A stretch of DNA of 64,000 bases from Escherichia coli (GTDB lineage Bacteria; Pseudomonadota; Gammaproteobacteria; Enterobacterales; Enterobacteriaceae). The notes beneath the pieces are model-generated. The model was not told the origin of the DNA. It ran no database searches and saw nothing but the letters and a program-made list of their open reading frames with translations. Position 1 is the stretch's first letter; each line of letters opens with the position of its first letter. Where the stretch lies: the NCBI RefSeq assembly GCF_013315695.1, contig NZ_CP054353.1; one strand, given 5' to 3'. A program made the position numbers and the translations under genes. This document shows, piece after piece, positions 2,271 through 53,255 of the stretch.

Positions 2271-3544
2271 GCCTGCTCTCCTTTCGCTGCGCCGTTCTTC
2301 AGCTTGAGTTGCGGGCGCGTCATGGGCAGCAAGCCCTGCGGACGCCAGATCATCATCAGCACCATCAAACCACCAAGCATTAACATGCTGTATTCGTTGA
2401 AATCACGCATCAACTCGCGCGATACCACCAGCAAAACAGCCGCCAGAATCACTGCAAATTGCGAGCCCATACCGCCGAGCACCACTATCGCCAGCACAAA
2501 CGCCGATTCGGCAAAAGTGAAGGATTCAGGGCTGACAAAGCCCTGGCGCGCAGCAAACAACGTTCCGGCAAAACCGGCAAACGCAGCGCTGATGGTAAAG
2601 GCAGTCAGCTTGATACGACGCGGGCTTAAGCCCAGCGAACGGCAGGCGATCTCGTCTTCACGCAACGCTTCCCACGCACGACCCAGCGGCATCCGCAGCA
2701 GGCGGTTAATGACAAACAGGCTTAACACCACCAGCAGCAACGCCACCAGGTAGAGGAAAATGACGCGATCGGAGGGATCGTATTTCAGGCCAAAGAAATT
2801 ACTGAACGTGTCCCAGCCGCCTTCGCGGGCGGTACGGCTGAACTCGAGGCCGAAGAAAGTCGGTTTCGGGATCTGACTAATTCCGTTCGGGCCACCGGTG
2901 ATTTCAGTGTTATTGAGCAGCAAGATGCGCACAATTTCGCCGAAACCGAGGGTAACGATCGCCAGATAGTCGCCACGTAAACGCAACACCGGGAAGCCGA
3001 GCAGGAAGCCCGCCGCCGCCGCCATCAACCCGGCAATCGGCAGACAGGTCCAGAAGCCCAGACCGTAATAGTGATTGAGCAGCGCAAAAGTGTAAGCGCC
3101 GATGGCGTAAAAGCCGCCGTATCCCAGCACCAGCAGACCAGAAAGACCTACCACCACGTTCAGCCCGAGACCGAGAATAATGTAGATCATGGTCAGGGTG
3201 GCGATATCCACCGTCCCACGTGAAACCATAAACGGCCACGCCACCGCAATCACCAGCAGCGCCACGAGAAACAGCTTTTGCTTCACCGTGGAGCCATCAA
3301 TCGCTGGCAGAATAAACTTAGGCCCGGAAACGCTTTTCAGCCCTTTCTGGAAAGCCGGTCGCAAAATCTGGAAGAAAAAGACCACCGCCGTGCCGATAAA
3401 CACCCACTGCCAACGGATGTCTGAAGCCGTGTCGACCACCAGTTTGGTGCCATCCAGCTCCAGTTGCACGCCCATAAAGACGCCAGCGAGGACAAAGAAC
3501 ATCGCGGCAGAGAGCAGCGCCATTGCAATATGCATCGGTTTCAT
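2267..3544 (-). CDS. livM: Branched-chain amino acid ABC transporter permease LivM
   Basis: 425 aa polytopic membrane protein, 4-bp overlap with livG, operon position. Confidence 0.92.
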
Positions 3545-5624: not shown

Positions 5625-6047
5625 AGTCAAAAATCCCCATTCGTGATGTTGTGTTGCTTTGTTTTTATGTGTTAACAAATCAGACTGTTCTTTTTTTATA
5701 CTGCACTGTTTTTACCTGTCTGATTAAGGGTTTAGCGCAGTACTTTGTGATGATAGCGATTAAAACCCCTATTTTTCAGTCGATTAATAACAGATAATAT
5801 TCTGAATTTATTGATAGATAAACAGAAAAAAGCGCCGTTGTCAGCATAAAATAACGGTACAAAGGGCAGAATAATTCACTACCATTTAGGGGATTATGCT
5901 GGATATTTTTCATTCTCTAATGTTTTAACTTTGTAATTATTGCTGAAAAAAAATTAATCACCTGCCAAAAGAAATAAAAAAGAGAAAGCCTCCGATTAAA
6001 TTATTTCGCTACACTGGTTCCACTTTTGTGATTTACACGGGTTCCCC

Positions 6048-6431
6048 ATGAAGCTGACCATCATTCGATTAGAAAACTTTAGCGACCAGGACCGGATTGA
6101 CCTGCAAAAGATCTGGCCGGAATATTCCCCTTCCTCTTTACAGGTTGACGATAACCACCGCATCTACGCCGCGCGTTTTAACGAGCGCCTGCTCGCGGCC
6201 GTGCGGGTAACCTTAAGCGGCACTGAGGGGGCACTGGATTCCCTGCGCGTGCGGGAAGTCACCCGCCGTCGCGGTGTGGGGCAATATCTGCTGGAAGAGG
6301 TTTTGCGTACCAATCCTGGCGTTTCATGTTGGTGGATGGCGGATGCTGGCGTGGAAGATCGCGGCGTGATGACGGCGTTTATGCGAGCACTGGGATTTAC
6401 GGCACAACAGGGTGGCTGGGAGAAGCGTTAA
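6048..6431 (+). CDS. panM: PanD maturation factor PanM/PanZ (GNAT fold)
   Basis: 127 aa, MKLTIIRLENFSDQDRIDLQKIW..., K-12 position between livK and livJ. Confidence 0.88.
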   Translation: MKLTIIRLENFSDQDRIDLQKIWPEYSPSSLQVDDNHRIYAARFNERLLAAVRVTLSGTEGALDSLRVREVTRRRGVGQYLLEEVLRTNPGVSCWWMADAGVEDRGVMTAFMRALGFTAQQGGWEKR

Positions 6432-6460
6432 TCGTCAAGTTTGATTTCACAAGTGATATT

Positions 6461-6560
<100 letters not shown>

Positions 6561-6618
6561 TGAAGCAACGTACTCGATATTAGCAATTTGGCGGCAACCC
6601 AAAGTTGCCGATTAATGA

Positions 6619-7722
6619 TTACTTCGCATCGGTCGCCGTGCCGTTGGCGTGCCAGTCAAATACGCCGAACTCAAAGCCTTTCAGATCGCCTTTCTCATCC
6701 CAGCTAAGCGGCCCCATCACCGTATCAACCGAGTTCGCTTTCAGGTATTTAGCGATCTCCGCCGGATCGTCAGACTGATTCAGCCCCGCTTGCAAAGATT
6801 GCAGCGCGGCGTAGGTGGTCCAGACGAACGCGCCGCTTGGGTCCTGTTTTTTCGCTTTGATCGCGTCAACAATCGGTTTGTTCGCCGGAACCTGATCGTA
6901 GTTCTTCGGCTTGGTCACCAGCAGCCCTTCCGCTGATTCGCCTGCAATGTTAGACAGCGAGACGTTAGCCACGCCTTCCGGCCCCATAAACTGAGTTTTC
7001 AACCCTGCCGCGCGTGCCTGACGCAGGATTTGCCCCATTTCCGGGTGATAACCACCGTAGTAAACGAAGTCGATATTCTCTTTCTTCAAACGCGCCACCA
7101 GGGTAGAGAAATCTTTTTCCCCAGCGGTGATACCATCAAAGAACACCACGTTAGCATTGCCTTTCTTCAGGCCGTCCTGCACCGCACGCGCCAGACCTTC
7201 GCCGTACTGCTGTTTGTCGTGGACGATAGCAATACGCTGCGGTTTCACTTTCTCAAGAATATATTTCGCCGCCGTCGGCCCCTGGTCGGAGTCCAGGCCG
7301 GTAGTGCGCAGGATCAGCTGATAGCCACGGGCGGTCAGCTCTGGCGCGGTTGCCGCTGGGGTGATCATTAAAATGCCTTCATCTTCATAGATGTCTGACG
7401 CTGGCTGCGTTGATGAAGAACAGAGGTGACCAATCACATATTTAATGCCGTCGTTAACGACTTTGTTCGCCACCGCAACCGCCTGTTTCGGGTCACAGGC
7501 ATCGTCATATTTCACGATTTGCAGTTTGTTGCCTTTGATACCACCTTTAGCATTGATATCCGCAACCGCCTGCTCAGCACCAGTAAACTCCTGGTCACCG
7601 TACTGCGCCACCGGACCGGACATTGCGCCTACGACGGCGACTTTAATATCTTCTGCCAGAGCCATATTGCTGAATGCCAGCGCGATACATCCTGCCAGTA
7701 ACGCTTTACCCTTTATGTTCAT
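6619..7722 (-). CDS. livJ: Leu/Ile/Val periplasmic binding protein LivJ
   Basis: ORF 6619..7821; start trimmed to [23 protein letters not shown] (signal peptide); 367 aa. Confidence 0.9.
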
Positions 7723-9092: not shown

Positions 9093-10151
9093 TTATTCAG
9101 GCGTAAAGTGGCGTAAATGTTGTACCGTGGCAAGCCACGCTGCCACCCAGCCAATCATCGAGCATACCAGCAGCAATAGCAGGCATTCATCGAACGATAA
9201 GCCATTGATATCAAACTTTGTTCCGAAAACCTGTGCCACTTCCGCAACCGCCGATGACAAACGCAGTACCAGAATTTCTGACAAAATTAGTGACAACAAT
9301 GCGCCAGAAAATCCCAGCAGTGCGCCACCGTACAGGAACGGGCGCAGGATGAAACCATCCGTCGCACCAATCAGTTTCTGCACGTTAATGGAGTCACGGC
9401 GAGCAAAGATACTCAGGCGCACACTGTTACCGATGACGAGGAACACTGCCGCCACCATCAACACGCCGATCATCGCGGAAACGCGCCCGACCAGCCCGGT
9501 TAACGCCGCCAGACGGGCAAACCAGCTGTCATCCATCCGCACTTCGTCAATGCCGTTGATCTGGGTGATACGATCACGCAGCGTATTCAGTGATTCCGTC
9601 CCCTGAAAATCGAGTTTCGGGATCACCACCGCCACTGCCGGAAGCGGGTTTTCTTCCAGCATATCCAGCGCACCACCAAAACCAGACCAGTTACGGAACT
9701 CGCCCAGTGCGTCTTCACGAGAAAGATAATTCACTTTCTCCACGCCTTGCTCAGCCTGCAACTGTGCCACCACGCCCGCAGCGGCGTCATCATCCAGCGT
9801 TTTTTGCAGATAAACAGTGATTTGCGGTGACGGATAATATTGCGTCGCCGCCTGGTTAACGTTTTTGTACACCATATAACAGACGCTGGGCAGCGTCAGG
9901 GAGATGGCGATAACCATCACCGTTAAAAACGTGGCGAACGGTTTGCTTTTCAGATCTTGCAATGCGCCGTGGAAGGCATAGCGCACCTGTTCGTTGAAAA
10001 CGTTGGTTTTGCGATTTACCGGTTTTGGCGAGGATTTCGCACGTTTCGGCGCGTTACGACCGCCGTCGCCAGAGCCGCCGACCGATTTACGGAAGCGATC
10101 CAGACGCCCGCCAAACTGCCGAATATGATTGATTGCATCGCGCTTATTCAT
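9093..10151 (-). CDS. ftsX: Cell division ABC transporter permease-like protein FtsX
   Basis: ORF 9093..10178; start trimmed to [15 protein letters not shown] (352 aa). Confidence 0.93.
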
Positions 10152-10812
10152 GGCCCACGCCTCCATGCAAGTGACCATCGCTCAGGGTGAGCATGCGATA
10201 GGAACGCCGCGAGATCAGGTTGATGTCGTGCGTTGCCATCAATACGGTTACCCCAACGCGGTTAAACTCTTCAAACAGCCGTAGAATCCCTTCCGACAAC
10301 GCGTCGTCCAGGTTACCGGTCGGTTCGTCCGCCAGCAATACCGCGGGCTTGTTCACCACCGCGCGGGCAATGCCAACACGCTGTTGTTCACCGCCCGAAA
10401 GCTGAATAGGGAAGTTCTTCGCTTTGTCCAGTAGCCCGACTTTATCCAGCGCCGCCGACACCCGGCGACGAATATCGTCACCGCTGGCACCGGCGATAAT
10501 CAGCGGGATCGCCACGTTATCGTAGACGGTACGGTCCATCAGCAGATGGTGATCCTGAAAAATCATACCGATCTGACGACGCAGAAATGGCACCTCGCGA
10601 TTTTTCAGTCGCGTGATGTCATGGCCGCTAAACCAGATTTTCCCAGCACTGGGCCGCTCAATCCCACAAATCAGCTTCAGGAGGGTACTTTTCCCTGCGC
10701 CGGAATGACCGGTCAGAAACGCCATCTCACCCGGCTGCATATGGAACGTCACGCCCTGCAGCGCTTGCCTCCCACCGAGATAAGCCTTGCTGACATGTTC
10801 AAAGCGAATCAT
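10144..10812 (-). CDS. ftsE: Cell division ATP-binding protein FtsE
   Basis: 222 aa, Walker [13 protein letters not shown] signature LSGGEQQR. Confidence 0.95.
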
Positions 10813-10814
10813 TG

Positions 10815-12329
10815 TTAATCCTCTCGGGCAAAAAGTGCCTCAATAAAGTCGTCCGCTTTAAACGGACGCAAATCCTCAATACGTTCGCCGACACCAATGT
10901 AGCGGATAGGAATACCAAACTGGTCAGCCACCGAGAAAATTACCCCACCTTTCGCTGTACCGTCCAGTTTCGTCAACGTAATGCCGGTTAAACCAACCGC
11001 TTCGTGGAACAGTTTGGCCTGGCTTACCGCATTCTGCCCGGTGCTGGCGTCAATTGTCAGCATAACTTCATGCGGGGCTTCAACGTCGAGCTTCTTCATC
11101 ACGCGGACGATTTTCTTCAGCTCTTCCATCAGGTGCGATTTGTTCTGCAAACGTCCGGCGGTATCGGCAATTAATACGTCGATGTTACGTGCCTTCGCAG
11201 CCTGAATGGCATCGAAGATAACAGAGGCAGAATCGGCACCAGTATGCTGAGCAATCACCGGAATATTGTTGCGCTGGCCCCAGACCTGAAGCTGTTCAAC
11301 CGCTGCCGCACGGAAGGTATCGCCCGCCGCCAGCATCACCGATTTACCCTGCTGCTCAAACTGACGCGCCAGCTTACCGATAGTGGTGGTTTTACCCACG
11401 CCGTTGACGCCTACCATCAGGATCACAAACGGCGCTTTGCCTTCGACGTTAAGCGGTTCATCGACTTTTGCCAGAATCTCGCCCATCTCTTCTTTCAACA
11501 GGCCGTAGAGCGCCTCAGCATCGCGAAGCTGCTTGCGGGTCGCGCCTTCGGTCAGATTAGTGATGATTTTGCGCGTAGTTTCCACACCCACGTCGGCAAT
11601 GAGCAGTTGTTCTTCCAGCTCTTCAAACAGATCATCGTCGATTTTTTTGCCACGGAACAGGCTGATAAATCCTGAACCGAGGTTTTCTTTAGTCTTCAGA
11701 AGGCTGCGTTTCAGGCGCGCGAAGAAACCTTCTTTGGTTGGTTTTTCCTGCTCCTGGGCAATTTCTTCAACCAACGGCTCTTCTTCTACCGCAGGAACAA
11801 GCTCCACCGCCTCTTCTGCGGCTTCATCAGCCAACGCCTGCGCTTCCAGCTCTTCGTCGGTAATCTCTTCTTTTGCCGCTTCTTCTTCCGCCGCGTCGAC
11901 AATCTCTACCGTTTCTGCTTCTGCCTGCCATTCTTCTGGCGAAATCTCTTCGGCTTTGACTTCTTCCGGCAGCGGTTGCTCTTCACGCTCACTAGCCACA
12001 GGCTCAGGTGTGGCTTCAGATTCAACTACCGGTTCCGGCTCTGCAATAACTTCCGGTTCGCTAACCGCTTCCGGCTGCGCTTTTTCGTTTTCGGCAACCT
12101 GTTCAGTGACTTGAACGACGTCGGCAGCGAAAGTTTCCGCCTCTGCTTCAGTATGTGTCTGAGGCAGCTCTTCTGTAGGCTGTTCAGCGACCTTCGCAGG
12201 CTCTTGCGCCTGAACGGTCTCTTCTACAACCGGTTGATCGTTCTGGACTTCTGTCTCTTTTTCCGGGGTCTGCTCTTTTTGACCAAAGCCCAGCCAGGAA
12301 AAAAAGCCACGTTTTTTTTCTTTCGCCAT
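10815..12329 (-). CDS. ftsY: Signal recognition particle receptor FtsY
   Basis: 504 aa; acidic E/A/P-rich N-terminal domain then NG GTPase domain (GVNGVGKTTT, DTAGR). Confidence 0.94.
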   Translation of the reverse strand: MAKEKKRGFFSWLGFGQKEQTPEKETEVQNDQPVVEETVQAQEPAKVAEQPTEELPQTHTEAEAETFAADVVQVTEQVAENEKAQPEAVSEPEVIAEPEPVVESEATPEPVASEREEQPLPEEVKAEEISPEEWQAEAETVEIVDAAEEEAAKEEITDEELEAQALADEAAEEAVELVPAVEEEPLVEEIAQEQEKPTKEGFFARLKRSLLKTKENLGSGFISLFRGKKIDDDLFEELEEQLLIADVGVETTRKIITNLTEGATRKQLRDAEALYGLLKEEMGEILAKVDEPLNVEGKAPFVILMVGVNGVGKTTTIGKLARQFEQQGKSVMLAAGDTFRAAAVEQLQVWGQRNNIPVIAQHTGADSASVIFDAIQAAKARNIDVLIADTAGRLQNKSHLMEELKKIVRVMKKLDVEAPHEVMLTIDASTGQNAVSQAKLFHEAVGLTGITLTKLDGTAKGGVIFSVADQFGIPIRYIGVGERIEDLRPFKADDFIEALFARED

Positions 12330-12481
12330 CTGCGACTACACTCCTCGCTGTTGCTTCATGGCACAGCGTTAACGACGCTATGTACATAGCAGCTATAAAA
12401 ATGATGAAATAGTCTATCACTTAACTTAATTCACATCACCGCCTGCAAGTATGTGTTAACAGGCGGATTGAGCAAATTGTC

Positions 12482-13078
12482 ATGAAAAAACCGAATCATT
12501 CCGGCAGCGGCCAAATCCGCATTATTGGCGGTCAGTGGCGAGGCCGTAAACTCCCGGTTCCGAATAGCCCTGGTCTGCGCCCCACCACCGATCGCGTACG
12601 TGAAACGCTGTTTAACTGGCTGGCGCCAGTCATTGTTGATGCGCAATGTCTGGATTGTTTCGCCGGCAGCGGCGCACTGGGGCTGGAAGCCTTGTCGCGC
12701 TACGCTGCGGGGGCTACGCTGATTGAGATGGAGCGCACAGTTTCTCAGCAGTTAATCAAAAATCTGGCGACGCTGAAAGCAGGCAATGCACGCGTGGTGA
12801 ACAGTAATGCGATGTCATTCCTGGCGCAAAAAGGTACGCCGCATAATATCGTATTTGTCGATCCGCCATTCCGTCGTGGCTTGTTAGAAGAGACGATTAA
12901 TTTACTGGAAGATAACGGCTGGCTGGCTGACGAAGCCTGGGTTTATGTCGAAAGCGAAGTCGAAAACGGTCTGCCCACCGTTCCGGCAAACTGGTCGTTA
13001 TATCGCGAAAAAGTAGCGGGTCAGGTTGCTTATCGCCTGTATCAACGTGAAACACAAGGAGAAAGTGATGCTGATTAA
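12482..13078 (+). CDS. rsmD: 16S rRNA m2G966 methyltransferase RsmD
   Basis: 198 aa, MKKPNHSGSGQIRIIGGQWRGRKL..., DPPF motif. Confidence 0.93.
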   Translation: MKKPNHSGSGQIRIIGGQWRGRKLPVPNSPGLRPTTDRVRETLFNWLAPVIVDAQCLDCFAGSGALGLEALSRYAAGATLIEMERTVSQQLIKNLATLKAGNARVVNSNAMSFLAQKGTPHNIVFVDPPFRRGLLEETINLLEDNGWLADEAWVYVESEVENGLPTVPANWSLYREKVAGQVAYRLYQRETQGESDAD

Positions 13079-13337
13079 TATTGGACGCTTGTTAATGCTC
13101 TGCGTATGGGGATTTTTAATCCTTAATATTTTTCAGCCCTTCCCACGCCCGCTGAATATTTTCGTTAATGTGGCGCTGATTTTTACCGTGCTGATGCATG
13201 GTATGCAACTGGCGCTATTGCAATCGACCTTACCAAAAGATGGCCCGCAGATGACGACCGCCGAAAAGGTGCGTATTTTCCTTTTCGGCGTGTTTGAACT
13301 GTTAATCTGGCAGAAGAAATTTAAAGTTAAAAAATAG
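13068..13337 (+). CDS. yhhL: Small inner-membrane protein YhhL (DUF1145)
   Basis: ORF 13026..13337; start set at MLINIGRLLML preceded by AAGGAG; overlaps rsmD stop. Confidence 0.8.
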   Translation: MLINIGRLLMLCVWGFLILNIFQPFPRPLNIFVNVALIFTVLMHGMQLALLQSTLPKDGPQMTTAEKVRIFLFGVFELLIWQKKFKVKK

Positions 13338-13339
13338 CG

Positions 13340-13699
13340 TTATTGCTCACCAACAAAGCTGACAAAGCGCGTTCCTTTATAGCTCAGCGTACCTTTCTCC
13401 CCCACCGTCAGGGCGTGGTACTGCTGAGCATCAAGGCGGAAGGTCTGCTCCAGCCCGCCGCTTTGCGGTTTGAAACTTGCCTCATAGCGCATGCTGGTTC
13501 CAGCCGGAGTGACCTCCTGCTGACGCGAACGGCGATCGTTAATCGGTTTTTCCCGCTTGTTGCTCACCACCACCAGCTTTTGCTGGAGCGGAGCCATATC
13601 ATTATCAGCTTTTTCCCGTCGCTGCTGCATAAAGCGAAACGATGCAGCGACAATAATTAAGCCAATGATAACAATAAAGAAAAGAGGTGGTTTACTCAT
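13340..13699 (-). CDS. yhhM: Uncharacterized protein YhhM (DUF2500)
   Basis: 119 aa, N-terminal TM helix, K-12 synteny. Confidence 0.85.
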   Translation of the reverse strand: MSKPPLFFIVIIGLIIVAASFRFMQQRREKADNDMAPLQQKLVVVSNKREKPINDRRSRQQEVTPAGTSMRYEASFKPQSGGLEQTFRLDAQQYHALTVGEKGTLSYKGTRFVSFVGEQ

Positions 13700-13839
13700 C
13701 GTTATCCCTCATCGGAAAATGAGGAAATAAGCATACCCTGCCAGTTATGGTGTTGTCATCCGTCCACCCTCGCCACTAAACTGGAGGCAAGACCGTAAGC
13801 ATTCCGCTTACGAAAAAATAACGAATTCAAGGAACTAAG

Positions 13840-14466
13840 ATGCTTTGGTCGTTTATCGCTGTCTGTCTTTCCGCATGGCTATCTGTGGATGCATCGTATC
13901 GTGGGCCAACCTGGCAACGCTGGGTGTTTAAACCGTTAACCCTTCTTCTCCTGCTGTTGCTGGCCTGGCAAGCGCCGATGTTCGACGCCATTAGCTATCT
14001 GGTGCTGGCGGGGCTGTGTGCCTCACTGCTGGGCGATGCGCTAACCCTGTTGCCACGTCAACGTCTGATGTACGCCATCGGCGCGTTTTTCCTCTCGCAC
14101 CTGCTGTACACCATCTATTTCGCCAGTCAGATGACGCTCTCCTTCTTCTGGCCTCTGCCGTTGGTGCTGTTGGTTCTGGGCGCGCTGTTACTGGCGATTA
14201 TCTGGACGCGTCTGGAAGAGTATCGTTGGCCTATCTGCACGTTTATCGGCATGACGCTGGTGATGGTGTGGCTGGCAGGTGAACTGTGGTTCTTCCGTCC
14301 GACCGCTCCGGCACTCTCTGCGTTTGTCGGCGCTTCGTTGCTGTTTATCAGTAACTTTGTCTGGCTGGGTAGTCACTATCGCCGACGCTTCCGTGCGGAC
14401 AACGCGATTGCTGCGGCCTGCTACTTTGCTGGTCACTTCCTCATCGTCCGCTCGCTGTATCTCTGA
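13840..14466 (+). CDS. yhhN: Inner membrane protein YhhN (YhhN family)
   Basis: 208 aa polytopic membrane protein, K-12 synteny. Confidence 0.88.
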
Positions 14467-27078: not shown

Positions 27079-27227
27079 CACCTACCCACGCGCCGTTATT
27101 TCCTGACGGCGCAGTAAATTCCTGCCAAATATCGACTCACGTCACATTTTTTTGATCACGATTTGGTCCCTCAAAATGTGAGACGCTTCGATCCTCTTTT
27201 TCTCCCGTTCACCTACTATACGCTTGA

Positions 27228-27255
27228 AGTTGTCCATGATTGTCCATAGACAACT
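27228..27255 (+). promoter_or_regulatory. Candidate operator upstream of island GntR regulator
   Basis: Inverted repeat AGTTGTC-N14-GACAACT with embedded direct repeat TTGTCCAT x2, about 20 bp upstream of regulator start. Confidence 0.35.
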
Positions 27256-27276
27256 GTAAATGTTCAGGTGCGCGCC

Positions 27277-28023
27277 ATGAAATCATTAAGTAAGTCGTCA
27301 CAAATACCGCTCTATCAACAAGTGGTGGAGTGGATAAGAGAAAGTATTTATACCGGGGATCTGGTGGAAGACGATCGCATTCCTTCGGAATACCAGATTA
27401 TGGATATGCTGGAAGTGAGTCGGGGAACCGTTAAAAAAGCGGTCGCCCAACTGGTAAAAGAAGGCGTGTTGATTCAGGTCCAGGGGAAGGGAACTTTTGT
27501 CAAAAAAGAGAACGTGGCATATCCGTTAGGTGAAGGATTATTGTCATTCGCGGAATCGCTGGAAAGCCAGAAAATACATTTTACCACTGAAGTTATTACG
27601 TCACGGATTGAACCGGCTAATCGTTATGTGGCAGAGAAATTAAGAATAACGCCCGGTCAGGATATTCTTTACCTTGAGCGTTTACGTTCAATTGGTGATG
27701 AAAAAGCGATGCTGATAGAGAACCGTATCAATATTGAGCTATGCCCCGGCATCGTGGAAATCGATTTTAATCAACATAATTTATTTCCAACAATAGAAAG
27801 TTTGTCGCAAAGAAAAATTCGTTACTCGGAAAGTCGCTATGCCGCGCGATTAATTGGTAATGAACGCGGTCATTTTTTAGATATCAGTGAAGATGCACCC
27901 GTTTTGCATCTGGAGCAGTTAGTCTTTTTCTCCCGAGAGTTACCCGTTGAGTTTGGCAACGTCTGGTTAAAAGGAAATAAATATTATCTGGGCACCGTGC
28001 TGCAACGGCGGGAAGTGAGTTAA
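27277..28023 (+). CDS. GntR/HutC-family transcriptional regulator (winged HTH + UTRA effector domain)
   Basis: ORF 27268..28023 (GTG); ATG at 27277 with AGGTG SD. HTH region IPSEYQIMDMLEVSRGTVKKAVAQLVKEGVL. Confidence 0.8.
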   Translation: MKSLSKSSQIPLYQQVVEWIRESIYTGDLVEDDRIPSEYQIMDMLEVSRGTVKKAVAQLVKEGVLIQVQGKGTFVKKENVAYPLGEGLLSFAESLESQKIHFTTEVITSRIEPANRYVAEKLRITPGQDILYLERLRSIGDEKAMLIENRINIELCPGIVEIDFNQHNLFPTIESLSQRKIRYSESRYAARLIGNERGHFLDISEDAPVLHLEQLVFFSRELPVEFGNVWLKGNKYYLGTVLQRREVS

Positions 28024-28047
28024 ATACACTTTTTTATGAGGAATAAA

Positions 28048-28521
28048 ATGCAAGGCATACAGTTTCAGGAAAATTATATTCAACGACTTCCGGCAGGGTT
28101 AAGCGTTGAACAGATCATCCGTCAGTTAGCGCAACCGTTGGTTGCTGCTGAGCTGGTGGTCCCTGATTTTGCCAATCACGTACTGAAACGTGAGGCGACG
28201 TACCCAACGGGGCTGCCTACCGAACCACCGTGCGTCGCCATTCCGCACACGGACCATAAACATGTCCGGCACAATGCAATTGCCGTCGGTATTTTGCCAG
28301 AGCCGGTAGAGTTTGCCGATATGGGCGGCGACCCTGATCCCGTACCTGTCAGGGTGATTTTTTTGCTCGCCTTAAGTGAAAGTAATAAACAATTAAATGC
28401 CCTGGGCTGGATTATGGAGATGATTCAGGATACGCCCTTTATGCGCGCCCTGCTTACGATGGAAACAACAGAAATACACACAGTAATCTTAAACAAAATG
28501 AATGAACGAGGTGAAATATGA
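28048..28521 (+). CDS. PTS EIIA component, galactitol (GatA-like) family
   Basis: ORF 28036..28521; ATG 28048 after GAGGA. Phospho-His region CVAIPHTDHKHV resembles GatA AIAIPHCEA. Confidence 0.8.
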   Translation: MQGIQFQENYIQRLPAGLSVEQIIRQLAQPLVAAELVVPDFANHVLKREATYPTGLPTEPPCVAIPHTDHKHVRHNAIAVGILPEPVEFADMGGDPDPVPVRVIFLLALSESNKQLNALGWIMEMIQDTPFMRALLTMETTEIHTVILNKMNERGEI

Positions 28522-28799
28522 GTCAAACCATTTTATTTGTCTGCGCCACAGGTATTGCCACATCCACGGCGGTAACAGAAAAAGTCATGGAGTATTGCAA
28601 AGAGCACGGCCTTAACGTCAATTATTCCCAAACCAACGTTGCCTCTTTACCCGGTAATACCGACGGCGTAGCGCTGGTTGTTTCAACGACTAAAGTGCCT
28701 TATGAACTCGACGTCCCGGTAGTTAACGGCTTGCCGATTATTACCGGTATTGGCGAAGAGAAAGTACTGGCGCAAATTGTTTCGATTCTTAAAAAGTAA
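28518..28799 (+). CDS. PTS EIIB component, galactitol (GatB-like) family
   Basis: 93 aa, ILFVCATGIATST (phospho-Cys loop); 4-bp overlap with EIIA gene. Confidence 0.8.
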   Translation: MSQTILFVCATGIATSTAVTEKVMEYCKEHGLNVNYSQTNVASLPGNTDGVALVVSTTKVPYELDVPVVNGLPIITGIGEEKVLAQIVSILKK

Positions 28800-28872
28800 T
28801 TAATAATTAATTCCAACCCACTCCATCAGGCGCTAACGCGAGGTGCGCTCTCGCCTGAAAAAGAGGTTTATT

Positions 28873-30231
28873 ATGAACGATATCGCGCATACCCTCTATA
28901 ATATTGTGCAATATATATTGGGATTTGGCCCCACGGTAATGTTGCCGTTGGTGTTATTTATTCTTGCTCTCTGTTTTAAAGTAAAACCCGCTAAAGCCTT
29001 ACGCTCGTCATTAACAGTCGGCATTGGTTTTGTCGGTATTTATGCCATTTTCGATATTCTTACCAGCAATGTCGGGCCAGCGGCCCAGGCGATGGTTGAA
29101 CGCACCGGAATTAATTTACCGGTGGTGGATTTAGGCTGGCCGCCGCTTTCCGCTATTACATGGGGTTCGCCAATTGCCCCGTTTGTTATTCCCCTGACCA
29201 TTCTGATTAATGTCGCAATGCTGGCGTTAAATAAAACCCGCACCGTTGATGTAGATATGTGGAACTACTGGCATTTTGCCCTTGCCGGTACGCTGGTTTA
29301 TTACAGCACCGGCAGCCTATTCTTTGGTTTGCTGGCGGCCGCGATTGCCGCAGTGGTGGTGCTAAAACTCGCCGACTGGTCTGCGCCACTGGTACAAAAA
29401 TACTTTGGCCTGGAAGGGATCTCATTGCCGACGCTCTCTTCGGTGGTGTTCTTCCCGGTCGGTCTGCTGGTCGACAAAATCATCGACCATATCCCTGGCC
29501 TCAATCGTATTCATATCGACCCGGAAACCGTACAGAAAAAGTTTGGCATCTTCGGCGAACCGATGATGGTTGGCACTATTCTGGGCATTCTGCTCGGCGT
29601 AATTGCCGGATACGATTTCAAAAAAGTCTTGCTGCTTGGCATCAGCATTGGCGGTGTGATGTTCATCCTGCCACGCATGGTTCGCATCCTGATGGAAGGT
29701 TTATTACCGCTGTCTGAAGCCATTAAAAAGTATCTCAATGCCAAATACCCTGACCGTGACGATCTCTATATAGGACTGGATATCGCCGTTGCCGTAGGTA
29801 ACCCGGCGATTATCTCCACCGCCCTGCTGCTGACGCCAATCTCGGTCTTTATCGCGTTTGTCCTCCCAGGTAATGAAGTCCTGCCGCTTGGCGACCTTGC
29901 CAACCTGGCGGTAATGGCGTCGATGATTGCTTTAGCCAGCCGTGGCAATATTTTCCGCACCGTTCTGGCGGCGATCCCGGTGATTATTGCCGACCTGTGG
30001 ATTGCCACTAAAATCGCGCCGTTTATTACCGGAATGGCGAAAGACGTTAACTTCAAATTTGCCGAAGGCTCCAGCGGCCAGGTTTCCAGTTTCCTTGATG
30101 GCGGTAACCCGTTCCGCTTCTGGCTGCTGGAAATCTTCAACGGCAATCTCATCGCCATTGGTCTGGTGCCGGTTATCGCCCTGATACTGTATGGCATTTT
30201 CCGAATGACGCGGAGCACGGTTTATGCCTGA
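28873..30231 (+). CDS. PTS EIIC permease, galactitol (GatC-like) family
   Basis: ORF 28843..30231; ATG 28873 after AAGAGG. Polytopic; strong resemblance to GatC (GPTVMLP..., GEPMMVGTILG, FGDLANL). Confidence 0.82.
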   Translation: MNDIAHTLYNIVQYILGFGPTVMLPLVLFILALCFKVKPAKALRSSLTVGIGFVGIYAIFDILTSNVGPAAQAMVERTGINLPVVDLGWPPLSAITWGSPIAPFVIPLTILINVAMLALNKTRTVDVDMWNYWHFALAGTLVYYSTGSLFFGLLAAAIAAVVVLKLADWSAPLVQKYFGLEGISLPTLSSVVFFPVGLLVDKIIDHIPGLNRIHIDPETVQKKFGIFGEPMMVGTILGILLGVIAGYDFKKVLLLGISIGGVMFILPRMVRILMEGLLPLSEAIKKYLNAKYPDRDDLYIGLDIAVAVGNPAIISTALLLTPISVFIAFVLPGNEVLPLGDLANLAVMASMIALASRGNIFRTVLAAIPVIIADLWIATKIAPFITGMAKDVNFKFAEGSSGQVSSFLDGGNPFRFWLLEIFNGNLIAIGLVPVIALILYGIFRMTRSTVYA

Positions 30232-31732
30232 TAACAGCGCAGCTATCGTTATCGATATTGGCACCACCAATTGCAAAGTCACCTGCTTTTCCTGCCTGGA
30301 TGCAACGACGTTGGGCGCGCATAAATTCGTGACGGCAAAACAGATCTCCCCACAGGGCGATGTCGATTTCGATATCGACGTCCTCTGGCAGGAGGTCCGC
30401 CAGGCAATAGCGCAACTGAGCGCCGCTTCGCCGCTGCCGGTCAGGCGGATAAGCATTGCCAGTTTTGGCGAGTCAGGGGTGTTTCTTGACGAGCATGGCG
30501 AGATCCTGACGCCAATGCTGGCATGGTATGACCGCCGCGGTGAAGAGTACCTGGCAACGCTTAGTGAGGCAGACAGTGCGGCGCTTTATGACATCTGCGG
30601 GCTACCGCTGCACAGCAATTACTCTGCCTTCAAAATGCGTTGGTTGCTGGAGCATTATCCACTGCGTAATCGCCGCGGCCTGCGTTGGCTACATGCGCCG
30701 GAAGTACTGCTCTGGCGGCTGACTGGCGAACAGCGTACGGATATCACCTTAGCCAGCCGTACGCTGTGTCTGGACGTGCGTAAAGGCGAATGGTCAGCGA
30801 AAGCGGCGGCGTTGTTACACGTTCCCTGTTCAGCATTTGCGCCATTGGTGCAGCCAGGCGAGCACGCCGGATGGGTCAGCGAGTCGCTCTGCAAAACGCT
30901 TGGGTTCTTGCAACCGGTCAGCGTGACGCTGGCCGGGCATGACCATATGGTGGGTGCGCGGGCGTTGCAGATGACGCCGGGCGATATCCTTAACTCGACG
31001 GGCACCACAGAAGGCATTCTGCAACTGGATACACAACCGACGCTGGATGAACAGGCCAAACGTGACAAGCTGGCAAACGGCTGTTATTCGCTTGCAAACC
31101 AGTTCACCCTGTTTGCGTCGCTGCCGGTGGGCGGTTTCGCTCTGGAGTGGCTGCGCAACACGTTCCGGCTAACCGATGAGGAGATCGCCGCATCACTTAC
31201 TCGCGGACATGCGGATTACCTGGCGGGGAACTGGTCGCTCGATGACATTCCCGTTTTTATTCCGCATCTTCGCGGTTCGGGTTCGCCCTATAAAAATCGC
31301 CATACCCGAGGATTATTTTATGGGCTTGGCGATACGTTAAATATCGATATGTTAATTGCCAGCGTCTCACTGGGATTAACCATGGAATTTGCCAACTGCT
31401 TCGCCTGTTTTAATGTGCCCGGCACCAGCGCGTTAAAAGTGATAGGTCCGGCAACCCATAATCCCCTTTGGCTGCAATTAAAGGCGGATATTTTACAGCG
31501 TCCGGTTGAAGCAATTGCATTTAACGAGGCGGTTTCTGTCGGAGCATTATTAACCGCCGCACCGGATATTCCACCGCCGCAAGTCACCATAGCCCAACGT
31601 TTGTTACCGAATCGGGCGAGATACCATCAATTACAGCGTTATCAGCACAAATGGAAAAGCTGGTATCAGTTGAAATTACAGCAAGAAGGCGTGATGCCAT
31701 TACATCATCGGGAGGAGCACTATGTTGAGTAA
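30224..31732 (+). CDS. FGGY-family carbohydrate kinase
   Basis: 502 aa; N-terminal AAIVIDIGTTNCKV ATPase motif; 8-bp overlap with EIIC gene. Confidence 0.75.
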   Translation: MPDNSAAIVIDIGTTNCKVTCFSCLDATTLGAHKFVTAKQISPQGDVDFDIDVLWQEVRQAIAQLSAASPLPVRRISIASFGESGVFLDEHGEILTPMLAWYDRRGEEYLATLSEADSAALYDICGLPLHSNYSAFKMRWLLEHYPLRNRRGLRWLHAPEVLLWRLTGEQRTDITLASRTLCLDVRKGEWSAKAAALLHVPCSAFAPLVQPGEHAGWVSESLCKTLGFLQPVSVTLAGHDHMVGARALQMTPGDILNSTGTTEGILQLDTQPTLDEQAKRDKLANGCYSLANQFTLFASLPVGGFALEWLRNTFRLTDEEIAASLTRGHADYLAGNWSLDDIPVFIPHLRGSGSPYKNRHTRGLFYGLGDTLNIDMLIASVSLGLTMEFANCFACFNVPGTSALKVIGPATHNPLWLQLKADILQRPVEAIAFNEAVSVGALLTAAPDIPPPQVTIAQRLLPNRARYHQLQRYQHKWKSWYQLKLQQEGVMPLHHREEHYVE

Positions 31733-31991
31733 AACCGTGGAGGTCAGAAACAGTACTGGCCTGCATGCACGTCCGGCGGCCTGTCTGGCGAAAGCCGCCA
31801 AAAAATATAGCTGTAAAGTGACGCTGCATTATGAAGGTAATGATATTAATGCCACCAGCATGATGAATATTATGCGCGCCGGAATAAAAGGCGGAAAAAC
31901 GGTGGAAATACGCTGCGAAGGTGATGATGAAAACGAGGCAATACAAACTCTCACTACCTTATTTCGCGACCGCTTCGGTGAAGCTGAATAA
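31722..31991 (+). CDS. HPr-like phosphocarrier protein (island-encoded paralogue)
   Basis: 89 aa; active-site GLHARPAA (His-15 equivalent); overlaps kinase gene. Confidence 0.8.
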   Translation: MLSKTVEVRNSTGLHARPAACLAKAAKKYSCKVTLHYEGNDINATSMMNIMRAGIKGGKTVEIRCEGDDENEAIQTLTTLFRDRFGEAE

Positions 31992-32022
31992 TTAACTGAT
32001 ATTAAAAGATGAGGTTTTCAAT

Positions 32023-32883
32023 ATGCCATTAGTTAATGGACGGATACTGCTCGACCGCATTCAGGAAAAACGGGTATTAGCGGGCGCATTTAATACCACC
32101 AATCTGGAGACAACGATTTCAATTTTAAACGCCATTGAGCGTTCAGGATTACCCAACTTCATTCAGATTGCGCCCACCAATGCACAACTGTCGGGATACG
32201 ATTACATTTATGAAATCGTGAAACGTCACGCTGATAAAATGGATGTTCCGGTCAGTCTTCATCTTGATCACGGGAAAACTCAGGAGGATGTTAAACAGGC
32301 GGTGCGCGCGGGCTTTACCTCGGTCATGATTGACGGTGCCGCATTCTCTTTTGAAGAGAATATCGCTTTCACCCAGGAAGCTGTCGATTTCTGTAAATCC
32401 TATGGCGTACCGGTTGAAGCGGAGCTGGGGGCGATTCTCGGCAAAGAAGACGATCACGTCAGCGAAGCCGATTGCAAAACGGAACCGGAAAAGGTGAAGA
32501 CCTTTGTCGAACGCACCGGTTGCGACATGCTGGCAGTTTCTATTGGTAACGTTCATGGCCTGGACGATATACCGCGGATCGATATCCCCCTGCTGAAGCG
32601 CATTGCCGAAGTCAGCCCGGTGCCGCTGGTTATTCACGGCGGCTCCGGTATCGCCCCGGAGATATTACGCAGTTTCGTTAATTATCGCGTCGCTAAAGTG
32701 AATATCGCCAGCGATCTGCGCAAAGCGTTTATCACCGCAGTCGGCAAAGCCTATGTGAATAATCACAACGAGGCGAATCTGGCACGAGTGATGGCATCAG
32801 CAAAAAACGCCGTCGAGGAAGATGTGTATAGCAAAATCCTGATGATGAATGAGGGGCATCGGTTGATTAGAAAGGCATCTTAA
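32023..32883 (+). CDS. Class II ketose-bisphosphate aldolase (GatY/KbaY/FbaA family)
   Basis: 286 aa; LHLDHG, VEAELG, HGGSG motifs of class II FBA family. Confidence 0.82.
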   Translation: MPLVNGRILLDRIQEKRVLAGAFNTTNLETTISILNAIERSGLPNFIQIAPTNAQLSGYDYIYEIVKRHADKMDVPVSLHLDHGKTQEDVKQAVRAGFTSVMIDGAAFSFEENIAFTQEAVDFCKSYGVPVEAELGAILGKEDDHVSEADCKTEPEKVKTFVERTGCDMLAVSIGNVHGLDDIPRIDIPLLKRIAEVSPVPLVIHGGSGIAPEILRSFVNYRVAKVNIASDLRKAFITAVGKAYVNNHNEANLARVMASAKNAVEEDVYSKILMMNEGHRLIRKAS

Positions 32884-32895
32884 GAGCCACAAAAA

Positions 32896-32930
32896 TATAG
32901 CGGCGCAACAGAAATTGTTGGGCCGCTATA
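32896..32930. terminator. Bidirectional terminator hairpin between aldolase and HicB-like gene
   Basis: tatagcggcgcaac / gttgggccgctata stem; T-run follows on minus strand (TATATTTTTG). Confidence 0.55.
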
Positions 32931-32932: not shown

Positions 32933-33292
32933 TTATAAATGATTCAAACGCTCATTTAGCGTTTCAATAATATAAGTATTTACAGAGACTTGTTGCTGCG
33001 CAGCCGCATTATTAAGGCGTTCACTCAGCGATTCTGGATAGCGTAATGTAAAGGTCTTAATCTTTTCTGTACGCGCATACGGCTCAATACCCGCAGCTTT
33101 ACAATCCTCAAGATACTCTCGCAGGGAAAGCTCCCCTTCTTTTTGCAGCCCCTGAATGCTGTCAGAGACAAAATCACAATAACCTGACAAGCCCAGGAAT
33201 TTGCCACGAAATGCATTCAGTTCTGGCACGTAAGTGATAACAGCAGGTTGCCCGGCAATCTCCATAGAGTTTGGCGTCTTCAGTTTGATCAT
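32933..33292 (-). CDS. HicB-family antitoxin-like protein (C-terminal ribbon-helix-helix)
   Basis: 119 aa; C-terminal SERLNNAAAQQQVSVNTYIIETLNERL looks like an RHH DNA-binding motif; 4-bp overlap with upstream small gene. Confidence 0.6.
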   Translation of the reverse strand: MIKLKTPNSMEIAGQPAVITYVPELNAFRGKFLGLSGYCDFVSDSIQGLQKEGELSLREYLEDCKAAGIEPYARTEKIKTFTLRYPESLSERLNNAAAQQQVSVNTYIIETLNERLNHL

Positions 33293-33564
33293 GGTTTTAC
33301 CCCTATACTTAGTAACCAGTCACGCACGCTTTCTACAGCGCCTTTATCGGTATCTGGCGACGGATGAGGCCGATGGAAACACGCAACGCTCATATTTAGT
33401 ATGAACTTACAACGCGAACCTCTTCCTTCCTTAATTTCTCCGCCTAATGCTTTAACCAGTGACTCTATATCAGACCACTTAATCCCTTGAGGAACAGGAG
33501 ATTTAAATATTTGATCCAATGTATTTTTTTGTTTCTTCCGTAAAGCCTGTACCAGGGTTCTCAT
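33289..33564 (-). CDS. HicA-family toxin-like protein (putative mRNA interferase)
   Basis: 91 aa; GSRCKFIL...HRPHP...DTDKGAVESVRDWL resembles the HicA pattern; upstream partner of the HicB-like gene. Confidence 0.55.
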   Translation of the reverse strand: MRTLVQALRKKQKNTLDQIFKSPVPQGIKWSDIESLVKALGGEIKEGRGSRCKFILNMSVACFHRPHPSPDTDKGAVESVRDWLLSIGVKP

Positions 33565-48627: not shown

Positions 48628-50100
48628 ATGAATACAACAACACCCATGGGGATGCTGCAGCAACCTCGCCCATTTTTCATGATCTTTTTTGTCGAGTTAT
48701 GGGAGCGATTCGGCTACTACGGCGTGCAGGGCGTACTGGCTGTTTTCTTCGTTAAGCAGCTTGGATTCTCGCAAGAACAGGCTTTTGTCACTTTTGGTGC
48801 TTTTGCTGCGCTGGTCTATGGCCTCATTTCCATTGGCGGCTATGTCGGCGACCACCTGCTGGGGACCAAACGCACCATTGTTCTCGGAGCACTTGTGCTG
48901 GCGATTGGCTACTTCATGACCGGCCTGTCGCTACTTAAGCCTGACCTGATTTTCATCGCCCTGGGGACTATCGCTGTCGGTAACGGCCTGTTTAAAGCTA
49001 ACCCAGCCAGCTTGCTTTCGAAGTGCTATCCGCCGAAAGATCCGCGGCTTGATGGCGCATTTACCCTGTTCTATATGTCGATCAACATCGGCTCGTTGAT
49101 AGCGTTATCGCTGGCCCCTGTGATCGCTGATAGATTCGGCTATTCAGTCACCTACAACCTGTGCGGTGCGGGATTAATTATCGCGCTATTGGTTTACATC
49201 GCCTGTCGCGGAATGGTGAAAGACATTGGTTCTGAACCCGACTTCCGGCCGATGAGCTTCAGCAAACTGTTGTACGTGTTACTTGGCAGCGTGGTGATGA
49301 TCTTCGTCTGTGCATGGCTGATGCACAACGTAGAAGTCGCCAATCTGGTGCTGATTGTTCTCTCCATCGTCGTCACCATCATTTTCTTTCGTCAGGCATT
49401 CAAGCTGGATAAAACCGGGCGCAATAAAATGTTTGTCGCCTTTGTCCTGATGCTCGAAGCGGTGGTGTTTTACATTCTCTACGCCCAGATGCCAACGTCG
49501 CTGAACTTCTTTGCCATCAACAACGTGCATCATGAAATTCTCGGCTTTTCCATCAACCCGGTCAGCTTCCAGGCGCTTAACCCGTTCTGGGTGGTACTCG
49601 CCAGCCCAATACTGGCAGGCATTTACACGCATCTGGGTAACAAAGGCAAAGATCTCTCGATGCCGATGAAGTTTACTCTCGGCATGTTTATGTGCTCACT
49701 GGGCTTTTTGACGGCTGCAGCGGCTGGAATGTGGTTTGCGGATGCCCAGGGGCTGACATCGCCATGGTTTATCGTGCTGGTGTACTTATTCCAGAGCTTA
49801 GGTGAACTGTTTATTAGCGCCCTTGGCCTGGCGATGATTGCTGCCCTGGTGCCGCAGCATTTGATGGGCTTTATTCTCGGGATGTGGTTCCTGACGCAGG
49901 CTGCCGCGTTCTTGCTGGGCGGCTATGTGGCAACATTTACCGCAGTACCAGACAACATTACCGATCCGCTTGAGACGTTGCCCGTCTATACCAACGTGTT
50001 TGGTAAGATTGGCCTGGTTACGCTGGGCGTTGCCGTAGTGATGCTATTGATGGTGCCGTGGCTGAAACGCATGATTGCGACGCCGGAAAGCCATAGCTAG
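48628..50100 (+). CDS. dtpB: Dipeptide/tripeptide:H+ symporter DtpB (POT family)
   Basis: 490 aa; ExxERFxYYG POT signature ([13 protein letters not shown]). Confidence 0.94.
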
Positions 50101-50112
50101 TTTCCCATTCTC

Positions 50113-51296: not shown

Positions 51297-51323
51297 TCAA
51301 TAATCACTAAAATGGAGCCGACC

Positions 51324-53215: not shown

Positions 53216-53255
53216 GATATACTCATTATTCTATGAATAAAATGAGTATGTTACG

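Follow-up and report, generated by a model that had tools for sequence, protein, structure and literature searches.

The ftsY locus

The DNA analysed here is a 64,000-nt stretch of an Escherichia coli chromosome (contig NZ_CP054353.1), hereafter called the window. On its minus strand, an open reading frame that runs from ATG to stop at positions 10815–12329 encodes FtsY, the receptor of the signal recognition particle (SRP), as a protein of 504 aa. The product scores 385.8 bits against the NCBIfam model TIGR00064 (ftsY), above the equivalog cut-off of 260.7, and stays under the cut-offs of the Ffh and SRP54 models. Pfam places PF02881 (SRP54_N) at aa 217–282, followed by PF00448 (SRP54) at aa 300–500; the E. 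coli FtsY of the PDB matches the reading frame with E=1e-285, and the G1, G3 and G4 motifs are seen in the translation as GVNGVGKTT, DTAGR and TKLDG. ftsY is an essential gene. It is the first gene of a ftsY-ftsE-ftsX operon, in which ftsE starts 3 nt past the ftsY stop and ftsX overlaps ftsE. The exact window protein corresponds to an existing MULTISPECIES entry and is found on 873 contigs. The genes and domains concerned are the following.

10144–10812, minus strand: ftsE, chimeric, with about 100 5' codons of E. albertii type and the rest of E. coli type; protein unchanged
10815–12329, minus strand: ftsY coding sequence (SRP receptor, E. albertii-type allele), 504 aa plus stop; from the reading frame, TIGR00064, Pfam and the PDB match
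10818–11687, minus strand: NG domain of FtsY, aa 215–504 (SRP54_N helical bundle and SRP-type GTPase); from Pfam
11688–12329, minus strand: acidic A domain of FtsY, aa 1–214; 26.6% Glu, net charge -44, pI 4.07
12482–13078, plus strand: rsmD (16S rRNA m2G966 methyltransferase), E. albertii type; from the annotation of the identical MS 21-1 locus
13068–13337, plus strand: yhhL (DUF1145), E. albertii type, dS 0.348; from the MS 21-1 annotation
13340–13699, minus strand: yhhM (DUF2500), E. albertii type, dS 0.382; from the reading frame and the MS 21-1 annotation

Length of FtsY and the acidic A domain

The first-pass annotation had described this FtsY as longer than the K-12 protein, 504 aa against about 497. 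The K-12 figure is right, because E. coli FtsY is 497 aa long in PDB entries 5gad_l and 2yhs_A and in MG1655 (b3464). MG1655 served as the K-12 reference throughout; a "DH5alpha"-labelled record, CP026085.1, was dropped, its ftsY being different from that of MG1655. Pairwise alignment with the K-12 protein confirms the difference in length and resolves it into three indels of +4, +2 and +1 residues, all of which map, as had been proposed, to the acidic A domain.

12054–12065, minus strand: indel 1, 12 nt, GTTAGCGAACCG (VSEP, aa 89–92); from the codon alignment and a HMMER alignment to PDB FtsY
12012–12017, minus strand: indel 2, 6 nt (EA, aa 105–106); from the codon alignment
11838–11840, minus strand: indel 3, CAG (Q164); from the codon alignment

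Apart from the indels, 26 of 193 aligned A-domain positions are substituted relative to K-12, and dN/dS is 0.18 in this domain against 0.006 in NG. The NG domain differs from that of MG1655 by a single substitution, S257T in K-12 numbering (303/304 identical), despite a dS of 0.495. The composition of the A domain is close to that of K-12, where the net charge is -41, the pI 4.09 and the Glu content essentially equal.

The three indels are distributed differently among the species. VSEP occurs in the window, in E. albertii and in two further non-coli Escherichia, and is lacking in K-12, ST648 and 06-00048. The second indel lies inside a hot spot formed by a degenerate 8-aa repeat, xPxPVVEx, at which two other Escherichia species are 30 nt longer than E. 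coli. Q164 is present in the window and in four other aligned Escherichia sequences, two of them E. coli, and is missing from MG1655, which reads ELET-ALAA at this place where ST648 and 06-00048 read ELEAQAL. [quoted passage not shown]

The domain had also been said to contain repetitive acidic segments. It is indeed acidic, but repetitive only in a weak sense. Tandem Repeats Finder, run over 10700–12450 at its lowest score (minimum 30), found no array at any of the three indel sites; its sole array, two copies of 12–15 nt at 11866–11894, lies off them. A repeat search of the A-domain DNA gave short degenerate pairs only, for example a 12-nt direct pair with 24-nt spacing at 12024–12059, and the periodicity of the domain, at 24 nt, is likewise degenerate. 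The length difference is therefore not of the variable-number tandem repeat kind, for which an array at the variable sites and alleles on a near-identical background would be expected; the 26 substitutions are accompanied by about 120 synonymous differences from E. coli across ftsY (dS 0.42–0.50).

A tract of E. albertii type

The divergence is not confined to ftsY. The genes from yhhM to the start of ftsE, ftsY included, have dS values of 0.33–0.50, against 0.07–0.12 for the flanking genes; for rsmD, dS is 0.331 and dN 0.017 relative to MG1655. Within ftsE, dS is 0.346 over codons 1–100 and 0.066 over codons 101–222, and dN is zero, all differences being synonymous; the same FtsE accession, WP_000617723.1, is accordingly common to MS 21-1 and a K-12-type strain. 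In both the sliding-window and the informative-site analysis, the sequence changes abruptly from E. coli type to E. albertii type and back again, with the following limits.

10502–10521: right junction interval, 20 nt, in ftsE at about codons 98–104; no species-distinguishing site
10522–13798: minimal E. albertii-derived tract, 3,277 nt, delimited by informative sites; maximal extent 10502–13907
13799–13907: left junction interval, 109 nt, in the yhhM-yhhN spacer and the first yhhN codons; no species-distinguishing site

Full alignment covered eight loci from E. albertii and a small number of E. coli sequences. The tract is 99.5–99.97% identical to the eight E. albertii genomes, with 99.97% for L086 and L088 and 99.54% for the type strain, compared with 91.2% for ST648 and 91.6% for K-12; CP045690 and CP117600 each show 1 mismatch in 3,277 nt. 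At the sites that distinguish E. albertii from ST648, the tract carries the E. albertii base at about 311 of about 323. The E. coli base stands at the other 12 or so, most of which vanish when closer E. albertii references are used, and a small mismatch-repair patchwork within the tract is conceivable. Beyond the left junction, the base is that of E. coli at every one of the 75 consecutive sites between 14585 and 13908, and below 10501 it is so at nearly every site.

The surroundings are those of an ordinary E. coli. Immediately beside the tract, identity is 98.5% and 99.1% to ST648 versus 88.7% and 92.5% to E. albertii, and when 4.5 kb and 3.6 kb of flank are taken, it is 98.4–99.3% to ST648-like E. 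coli. The FtsE, FtsX, RpoH, YhhN, TusA, YhhQ and DcrB proteins of the flanks have the same accessions as in K-12. The window is effectively identical to MS 21-1, and its other nearest relatives in the region are ST648-like. Gene order is collinear in K-12, ST648 and MS 21-1, and the annotation of these three loci contains no mobile element at the tract. When the whole window was compared with ST648 in 500-nt tiles, the parts shared outside the tract were 94–100% identical, mostly 97–100%. The stretches without a hit were accessory genes, and no tile fell below 93% except at the ftsY tract, so that further E. albertii-like patches were not found in these 64 kb.

Distribution of the allele

With the window ftsY as query, 5 of 5,426 complete E. 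coli genomes match at 100%, and the other 5,420 at about 89% (the 80–90% band). The K-12 ftsY gives the mirror image: 839 genomes at 99% or more, 4,581 at 95–99%, five at 80–90% and none between. The five carriers are MS 21-1, MSB1_4I and three OZ records; their ftsY genes are identical, and their flanks are 99.9–100% identical to the window, the left flank at 100%. The same sequence also occurs in the assembly UGAA01000001.1, with 16 more similar places beyond those listed. The earlier suggestion that the allele might serve as a strain marker is borne out by this rarity: present in 5/5,426 complete genomes, its sequence cleanly marks a rare lineage of human-associated E. coli.

On the donor side, when each species was represented by one genome, the E. 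albertii type strain gave 99% amino acid identity over the A domain and the next-best Escherichia hits 85%. FtsY is 504 aa long in the type strain and in all 8 other E. albertii-labelled members among those listed for the cluster; members of 466–498 aa are also present. The loci L086 and L088–L093 were assigned to E. albertii by the identity of their flanks to the type strain. For CP045690 and CP117600 this flank identity is 98.5–99.5%, compared with 88.7% and 92.5% to the window. The tract is carried by all eight E. albertii loci, a small donor sample.

Origin of the 504-residue FtsY

The tract is nearly identical to the DNA of E. albertii, whose FtsY has 504 aa, and therefore the long allele arrived ready-made by homologous recombination. 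Very probably, a rare lineage of E. coli has had its own yhhM, yhhL, rsmD and ftsY, together with the beginning of ftsE, replaced by 3.3–3.4 kb of E. albertii DNA, in what was apparently a recent interspecies import. Four points are shown directly: the sequence is a mosaic, the donor was E. albertii, the DNA moved into E. coli, and the allele is rare there. The analysis found no evidence against the mosaic.

As to the course of events, donor DNA would have entered by transduction, conjugation or transformation, and RecA-dependent crossovers would have taken place in short blocks of identical sequence at the two ends, 109 nt on the left and 20 nt on the right. For RecBCD/RecA processing, the 20 nt of perfect identity at the right junction lies in the lowest part of the range. 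This syntenic homologous recombination exchanged the complete ftsY, about 100 codons at the 5' end of ftsE, and yhhM, yhhL and rsmD. The 504-aa FtsY is simply the normal E. albertii protein, and the +4, +2 and +1 residues are old differences in a fast-evolving, disordered A domain that did not originate in the window strain.

It is unlikely that the import was adaptive, with a benefit to this human-gut E. coli lineage from the FtsY A domain, RsmD, YhhL or YhhM, or that it is one of many E. albertii segments scattered over the genome. Either case, if true, would be at odds with the position that core genes are not exchanged between the two species.

The first-pass annotation had attributed the extra length to repeat expansion or contraction, that is, to slippage by which the strain's own ftsY gained 21 nt in the A domain. 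The domain is certainly prone to indels: ftsY is 1488, 1494, 1497 or 1515 nt long in E. coli genomes, cluster members of other lengths exist, the second indel falls in an 8-aa repeat whose copy number varies among Escherichia species, and the 12-nt pair with its 24-nt spacing is present. Slippage does not, however, explain why 26 A-domain residues and some 120 synonymous sites differ as well, why the divergence runs through four neighbouring genes, or why the tract matches E. albertii at 99.97%, and no tandem array lies at the indel sites. With the whole gene and its neighbours about 9% diverged from E. coli and near-identical to E. albertii, an in-situ repeat change as the cause in the window strain was rejected and is given hardly any weight. 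One indel may go back to slippage in the degenerate xPxPVVEx repeat; if so, this belongs to the much older timescale on which the Escherichia species split.

Transfer in the reverse direction, from E. coli to E. albertii, or from a third species into both, is very improbable too. That the exact protein is common to the two species is by itself without direction. However, the tract is found in 8/8 E. albertii loci, which differ from the type strain at 13–22 of 3,277 nt, no more than their flanks diverge, and it is absent from 5,420/5,425 E. coli genomes; a third source is disfavoured by the one-per-species scan, in which no other species exceeds 85% in the A domain.

That the window might be a mislabelled E. 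albertii, or another Escherichia species, is hardly credible. Genomes labelled E. coli but belonging to other Escherichia species have been reported (PMC9830988), and one such case is L005 (SCPM-O-B-8794), which is labelled E. coli and has an FtsY of 512 aa at about 90% identity. The window, in contrast, follows ST648 tile by tile outside the 3.4 kb tract, and its flanks are far closer to ST648 than to E. albertii at both ends.

An ancient trans-species polymorphism, or incomplete lineage sorting, in which both allele classes were kept since the split of E. coli and E. albertii, could in principle yield two very different classes of allele within one species. It would predict a divergence from E. 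albertii like that of the flanks, 8–11%, where the tract shows 1 nt in 3,277; the junctions are sharp, and the allele is limited to five genomes with almost identical flanks, which leaves this explanation next to no probability. An assembly chimera or contamination by E. albertii reads has nothing specific in its favour and is practically inconceivable, as the same sequence stands in five independently sequenced complete genomes, with MS 21-1 checked across the junctions, and again in UGAA01000001.1.

The import from E. albertii is an ordinary case of a known process and reveals no new biology or mechanism. A literature search of incomplete coverage returned nothing specific on this import or on MS 21-1, and a prior description may exist. 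Its interest lies in the precision of the map: an E. albertii-to-E. coli import in the core genome that replaced the essential ftsY and left behind a chimeric but silent ftsE. According to a population-level analysis, E. albertii and E. coli do not recombine with each other (PMC9830988), and the tract is a concrete counter-example to that claim.

The hybrid SRP receptor

In FtsY, a basic N-terminal segment binds lipids, a membrane-targeting sequence lies at the A/N junction, and the central A domain binds SecYEG non-specifically, via electrostatics (PMC5094494); for K-12, that paper gives a Kd of about 0.18 uM between FtsY-A and SecYEG in nanodiscs. The window protein has the same residues as K-12 at aa 1–14 and in the membrane-targeting sequence, KPTKEGFFARLKRSLLKTK. 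From the 303/304 identity of the NG domain, the GTP-dependent complex with Ffh/4.5S RNA and the binding of SecYEG are probably retained. As all functional elements known for FtsY are kept, the hybrid receptor is expected to cooperate with the Ffh, 4.5S RNA and SecYEG of E. coli in the normal way. With the lipid-binding N terminus, the targeting sequence, the charge and the NG domain all conserved, a neutral effect is likely, as the first-pass annotation had supposed, and the import was most likely harmless and selectively near-neutral. A heterologous disordered A domain with 26 substitutions and seven additional residues would seem compatible with the E. coli SRP and SecYEG, which amounts to a natural experiment; such compatibility agrees with the model of a non-specific electrostatic tether (PMC5094494).

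Comparison with known systems

Like K-12 FtsY (b3464; PDB 2YHS and 5GAD), the window protein consists of a disordered acidic A domain followed by an NG GTPase and is encoded in the same ftsYEX operon, with identical N-terminal lipid-binding segment and membrane-targeting sequence and one NG substitution. Unlike it, the protein has 504 instead of 497 aa, its A domain carries three indels and 26 substitutions, and the synonymous divergence of the gene is about 0.45. The closer match is the rsmD-ftsY-ftsE region of E. albertii (NBRC 107761, CP045690, CP117600), which shares the FtsY length of 504 aa and the tract DNA at 99.5–99.97%; 3 A-domain residues differ from the type strain NBRC 107761. What distinguishes the window from the E. 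albertii neighbourhood is that the tract is placed in an E. coli chromosome.

Introgression of core genes between species by homologous recombination has been surveyed, for example in Neisseria (PMC9650840), and described for Campylobacter coli and C. jejuni (PMC3749442). The window resembles these cases in that a short orthologous segment was replaced in synteny, with no mobile element, junctions in conserved sequence and about 90% identity between donor and recipient. It differs from genome-wide introgression in being a single small tract in 64 kb, between two species that have been called non-recombining (PMC9830988).

Finally, length polymorphism of FtsY occurs across the Enterobacteriaceae, where proteins of 487–529 aa in Escherichia, Citrobacter and Salmonella vary in the A domain only, as here; in the E. 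coli sampled the range is 495–498 aa. The window differs from these other variants in that its length came with a foreign allele and not by a local indel.

An E. albertii recombination tract in E. coli

The real feature of this region is a recent 3.3-3.4 kb recombination tract from Escherichia albertii to E. coli, which carries the E. albertii 504-aa FtsY. In a six-way alignment read in 150-nt windows, the sequence outside the tract is 98-100% identical to the E. coli comparator ST648 versus 84-93% to E. albertii, and inside it is 98-100% identical to E. albertii versus 82-95% to E. coli; the switch to E. albertii-like sequence lies near 13,900 and the switch back near 10,500. The bounds of the tract, 3,277-3,406 nt, were drawn from runs of informative sites, defined as positions at which ST648 and E. 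albertii differ. From 14585 to 13908, 75 consecutive sites are all of E. coli type, from 13798 to 10522 about 311 of 323 are of E. albertii type, and from 10501 downward nearly all are again of E. coli type.

Extent and junctions of the tract
10522-13798, minimal tract by informative sites, 3,277 nt
10502-13907, maximal tract by informative sites, 3,406 nt
yhhM-yhhN spacer and start of yhhN, first junction interval, 109 nt without a species-distinguishing site
Inside ftsE, second junction interval, 20 nt without a species-distinguishing site

The tract covers yhhM, yhhL, rsmD, the complete ftsY, and ~100 codons at the start of ftsE. Nei-Gojobori estimates of dS and dN between the window and MG1655 were obtained by gene.

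dS, window versus MG1655 (Nei-Gojobori)
yhhN: 0.12
yhhM: 0.38
yhhL: 0.35
rsmD: 0.33
ftsY, A domain (acidic N-terminal aa 1-214): 0.42
ftsY, NG domain (aa 215-504): 0.50
ftsE, codons 1-100: 0.35
ftsE, codons 101-222: 0.07
ftsX: 0.12

The dS values of 0.42 and 0.50 give the A and NG domains the same age, and constraint is their sole difference (dN/dS of 0.18 and 0.006, respectively). For FtsE dN is 0, and the protein is unaltered.

The host chromosome is otherwise an ordinary E. coli one, with only local divergence: MS 21-1, a strain effectively identical to the window, shares the RefSeq accessions of FtsE, FtsX, RpoH, YhhN, TusA, YhhQ, and DcrB with a K-12-type strain, and ST648-like E. coli match the flanks of the tract (4.5 kb and 3.6 kb) at 98.4-99.3% identity. 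A megablast search of 5,426 complete E. coli genomes with the window ftsY found a bimodal distribution, with 100% identity in five genomes (MS 21-1, MSB1_4I, OZ547117, OZ546925, and OZ546911) and ~89% in the remaining 5,420. The reciprocal search with the K-12 gene placed 839 genomes at ≥99%, 4,581 at 95-99%, and five at 80-90%, with none between the two lower bands.

Donor and direction of transfer

When the first 260 residues of FtsY were compared with one genome per bacterial species, the best match was the E. albertii type strain NBRC 107761 (99% identity), followed by other Escherichia at 85% and by Citrobacter and Salmonella at 61-72%. The exact protein is catalogued as 'MULTISPECIES ... 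FtsY [Enterobacteriaceae]' on 873 contigs, and all eight E. albertii-labelled members among those listed in its cluster are 504 aa long. The contigs that encode it are of two kinds. One (L087) has the E. coli context of the window, as do, similarly, 16 further places; in seven complete genomes (L086 and L088-L093) the flanks match the E. albertii type strain at 98.3-99.7% identity and the window at just 88.6-88.7% and 92.4-92.7%.

At the nucleotide level, the tract differs by 1 nt from CP045690, by 1 nt from CP117600, and by 15 nt from the type strain, versus 285 substitutions plus 30 gap positions from ST648. Its presence in all eight E. albertii loci and in five of 5,425 E. coli genomes sets the direction as E. 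albertii to E. coli. Among the E. albertii loci the tract lies 13-22 mismatches from the type strain, a spread consistent with the ANI above 98% reported within this species (PMC4700944). An old polymorphism shared by the two species is ruled out by the near-identity of the tract to living E. albertii strains.

Length and indels of FtsY

The ATG-to-stop reading frame at 10815-12329 on the minus strand encodes a protein of 504 aa that is unambiguously FtsY. Its score against NCBIfam TIGR00064 is 385.8 bits (cut-off 260.7), its alignment with the E. coli FtsY chains 5gad_l and 2yhs_A (497 aa; E = 1e-285) runs over the full length, and it contains the following Pfam domains.

aa 217-282, SRP54_N
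aa 300-500, SRP54

In MG1655, b3464 measures 1,494 nt and encodes 497 aa; together with the reading frame and the PDB chains, this bears out both lengths in the first-pass annotation, 504 aa here and ~497 aa in K-12. Alignment with K-12 FtsY places the seven additional residues entirely in the A domain, as three indels.

12054-12065, minus strand, indel 1, VSEP (aa 89-92)
12012-12017, minus strand, indel 2, EA (aa 105-106)
11838-11840, minus strand, indel 3, Q164

Their history was read from a codon alignment that included two other non-coli Escherichia genomes and three E. coli sequences. E. albertii and both other species carry the 12-nt VSEP segment, which all three E. coli lack; the simplest account of this difference would be a deletion in the E. 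coli lineage. Indel 2 lies within a degenerate 8-aa unit, xPxPVVEx, found three times in the two other species and twice in E. coli, with E. albertii having two copies and a remnant; repeat slippage on the timescale of species divergence is a reasonable explanation for it. The absence of Q164 is peculiar to K-12 MG1655, as ST648, 06-00048 (another E. coli comparator), and the window share EAQAL. TRF and a repeat search found no true tandem array at any of the three sites, and the allele arrived whole with the E. albertii tract, which rejects repeat expansion or contraction in this strain. Thus, the earlier length observation stands and its interpretation holds only in part, the source being an imported allele and not a local repeat change.

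Among 60 evenly spaced E. coli genomes, ftsY measured 1,497 nt in 37, 1,494 nt in 20, 1,488 nt in two, and 1,515 nt in one; hence, 498 aa is the commonest length, K-12's 497 aa is rarer, and 495 and 504 aa account for two genomes and one. Cluster members of 466-491 aa labelled E. coli or Shigella also occur in the database. The ftsY at 6001-7494 of NZ_CP026085.1, labelled DH5alpha, differs from that of MG1655, and both proteins reach 497 aa via different indels (ELEAQAL...PPV-EEQ versus ELET-AL...PPAEEEQ); this contig either is wrongly labelled or is no true K-12 derivative at the ftsY locus. The species-representative genomes NZ_JAATUR010000004.1 ('Escherichia coli strain SCPM-O-B-8794'; FtsY of 512 aa) and Escherichia sp. 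E1V33 (509 aa) have one additional xPxPVVEx unit and are just ~88-95% identical to the E. coli flanks of the window. The former, though labelled E. coli, seems to belong to an Escherichia lineage other than E. coli.

Function of the imported FtsY

The A domain is intrinsically disordered, and its acidic centre binds SecYEG electrostatically and non-specifically (PMC5094494). Glu content is 26.6% in both the imported and the K-12 protein. Because the lipid-binding N terminus (residues 1-14) and the membrane-targeting sequence at the A/N junction are those of K-12, net charge (-44 versus -41) and pI (4.07 versus 4.09) are conserved, and the NG part differs by a single conservative substitution, S257T, the hybrid receptor would be expected from its sequence to work normally and the import to be near-neutral. 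That the lineage has persisted in several independent isolates from humans agrees with both expectations.

Other differences within the window

Tiling of the 64-kb window against ST648 revealed no other patch below 93% identity besides the ftsY tract; tiles without an ST648 match are accessory genes in three stretches. A block of ~5.8 kb (~27,080-32,920, between nikR and the hicAB toxin-antitoxin pair) is missing from ST648 and, in the MS 21-1 record, encodes a GntR regulator, PTS IIA, IIB, and galactitol-type IIC, an FGGY kinase, an HPr-like protein, and a class II aldolase. Also missing is a block of ~9 kb (~50,100-59,000, between dtpB and rsmJ) with genes for sorbitol-6-phosphate dehydrogenase, PTS mannitol-type IICB/IIA, a DeoR regulator, and mannitol and glycerol dehydrogenases, along with an HPr-like protein, a HAD hydrolase, hxlB, and ribulose-phosphate 3-epimerase. 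At 1-~790, between livF and ugpB, lies a gene for a tetratricopeptide-repeat protein (WP_000558835.1 in MS 21-1) without an ST648 counterpart at this position.

The ataR/ataT (TacA/GNAT) toxin-antitoxin pair is missing from the livJ-panM spacer (~6,420-6,610) in both the window and ST648; it is present there in K-12 and several E. albertii loci, and ataT is truncated in 06-00048. The toxin gene hicA (~33,000-33,300) is intact in the window lineage (WP_001259770.1 in MS 21-1), and its ST648 copy is annotated as a pseudogene that contains an internal stop. Tiles 1001-1500, 2501-3000, and 35001-35500 (livF/livG/livM and rbbA) are just 94-95% identical to ST648, probably owing to ordinary within-species recombination.

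Mechanism and relation to known introgression

The tract is an orthologous replacement at a syntenic site with junctions in conserved sequence, and no mobile element is associated with it. The E. albertii DNA may have entered via transduction, conjugation, or transformation, and RecA-mediated exchange would have followed. FtsY, including its variable A domain, is already well characterised, and the exact protein had been catalogued; no prior description of an E. albertii ftsY import was found in the literature, of which coverage was incomplete. Core-gene introgression between species is widespread in bacteria (PMC9650840), and the tract is a new instance of this already known process. It is a clean single exception to the population-level statement that E. 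albertii and E. coli do not recombine, and it leaves that population-level conclusion unchallenged (PMC9830988).
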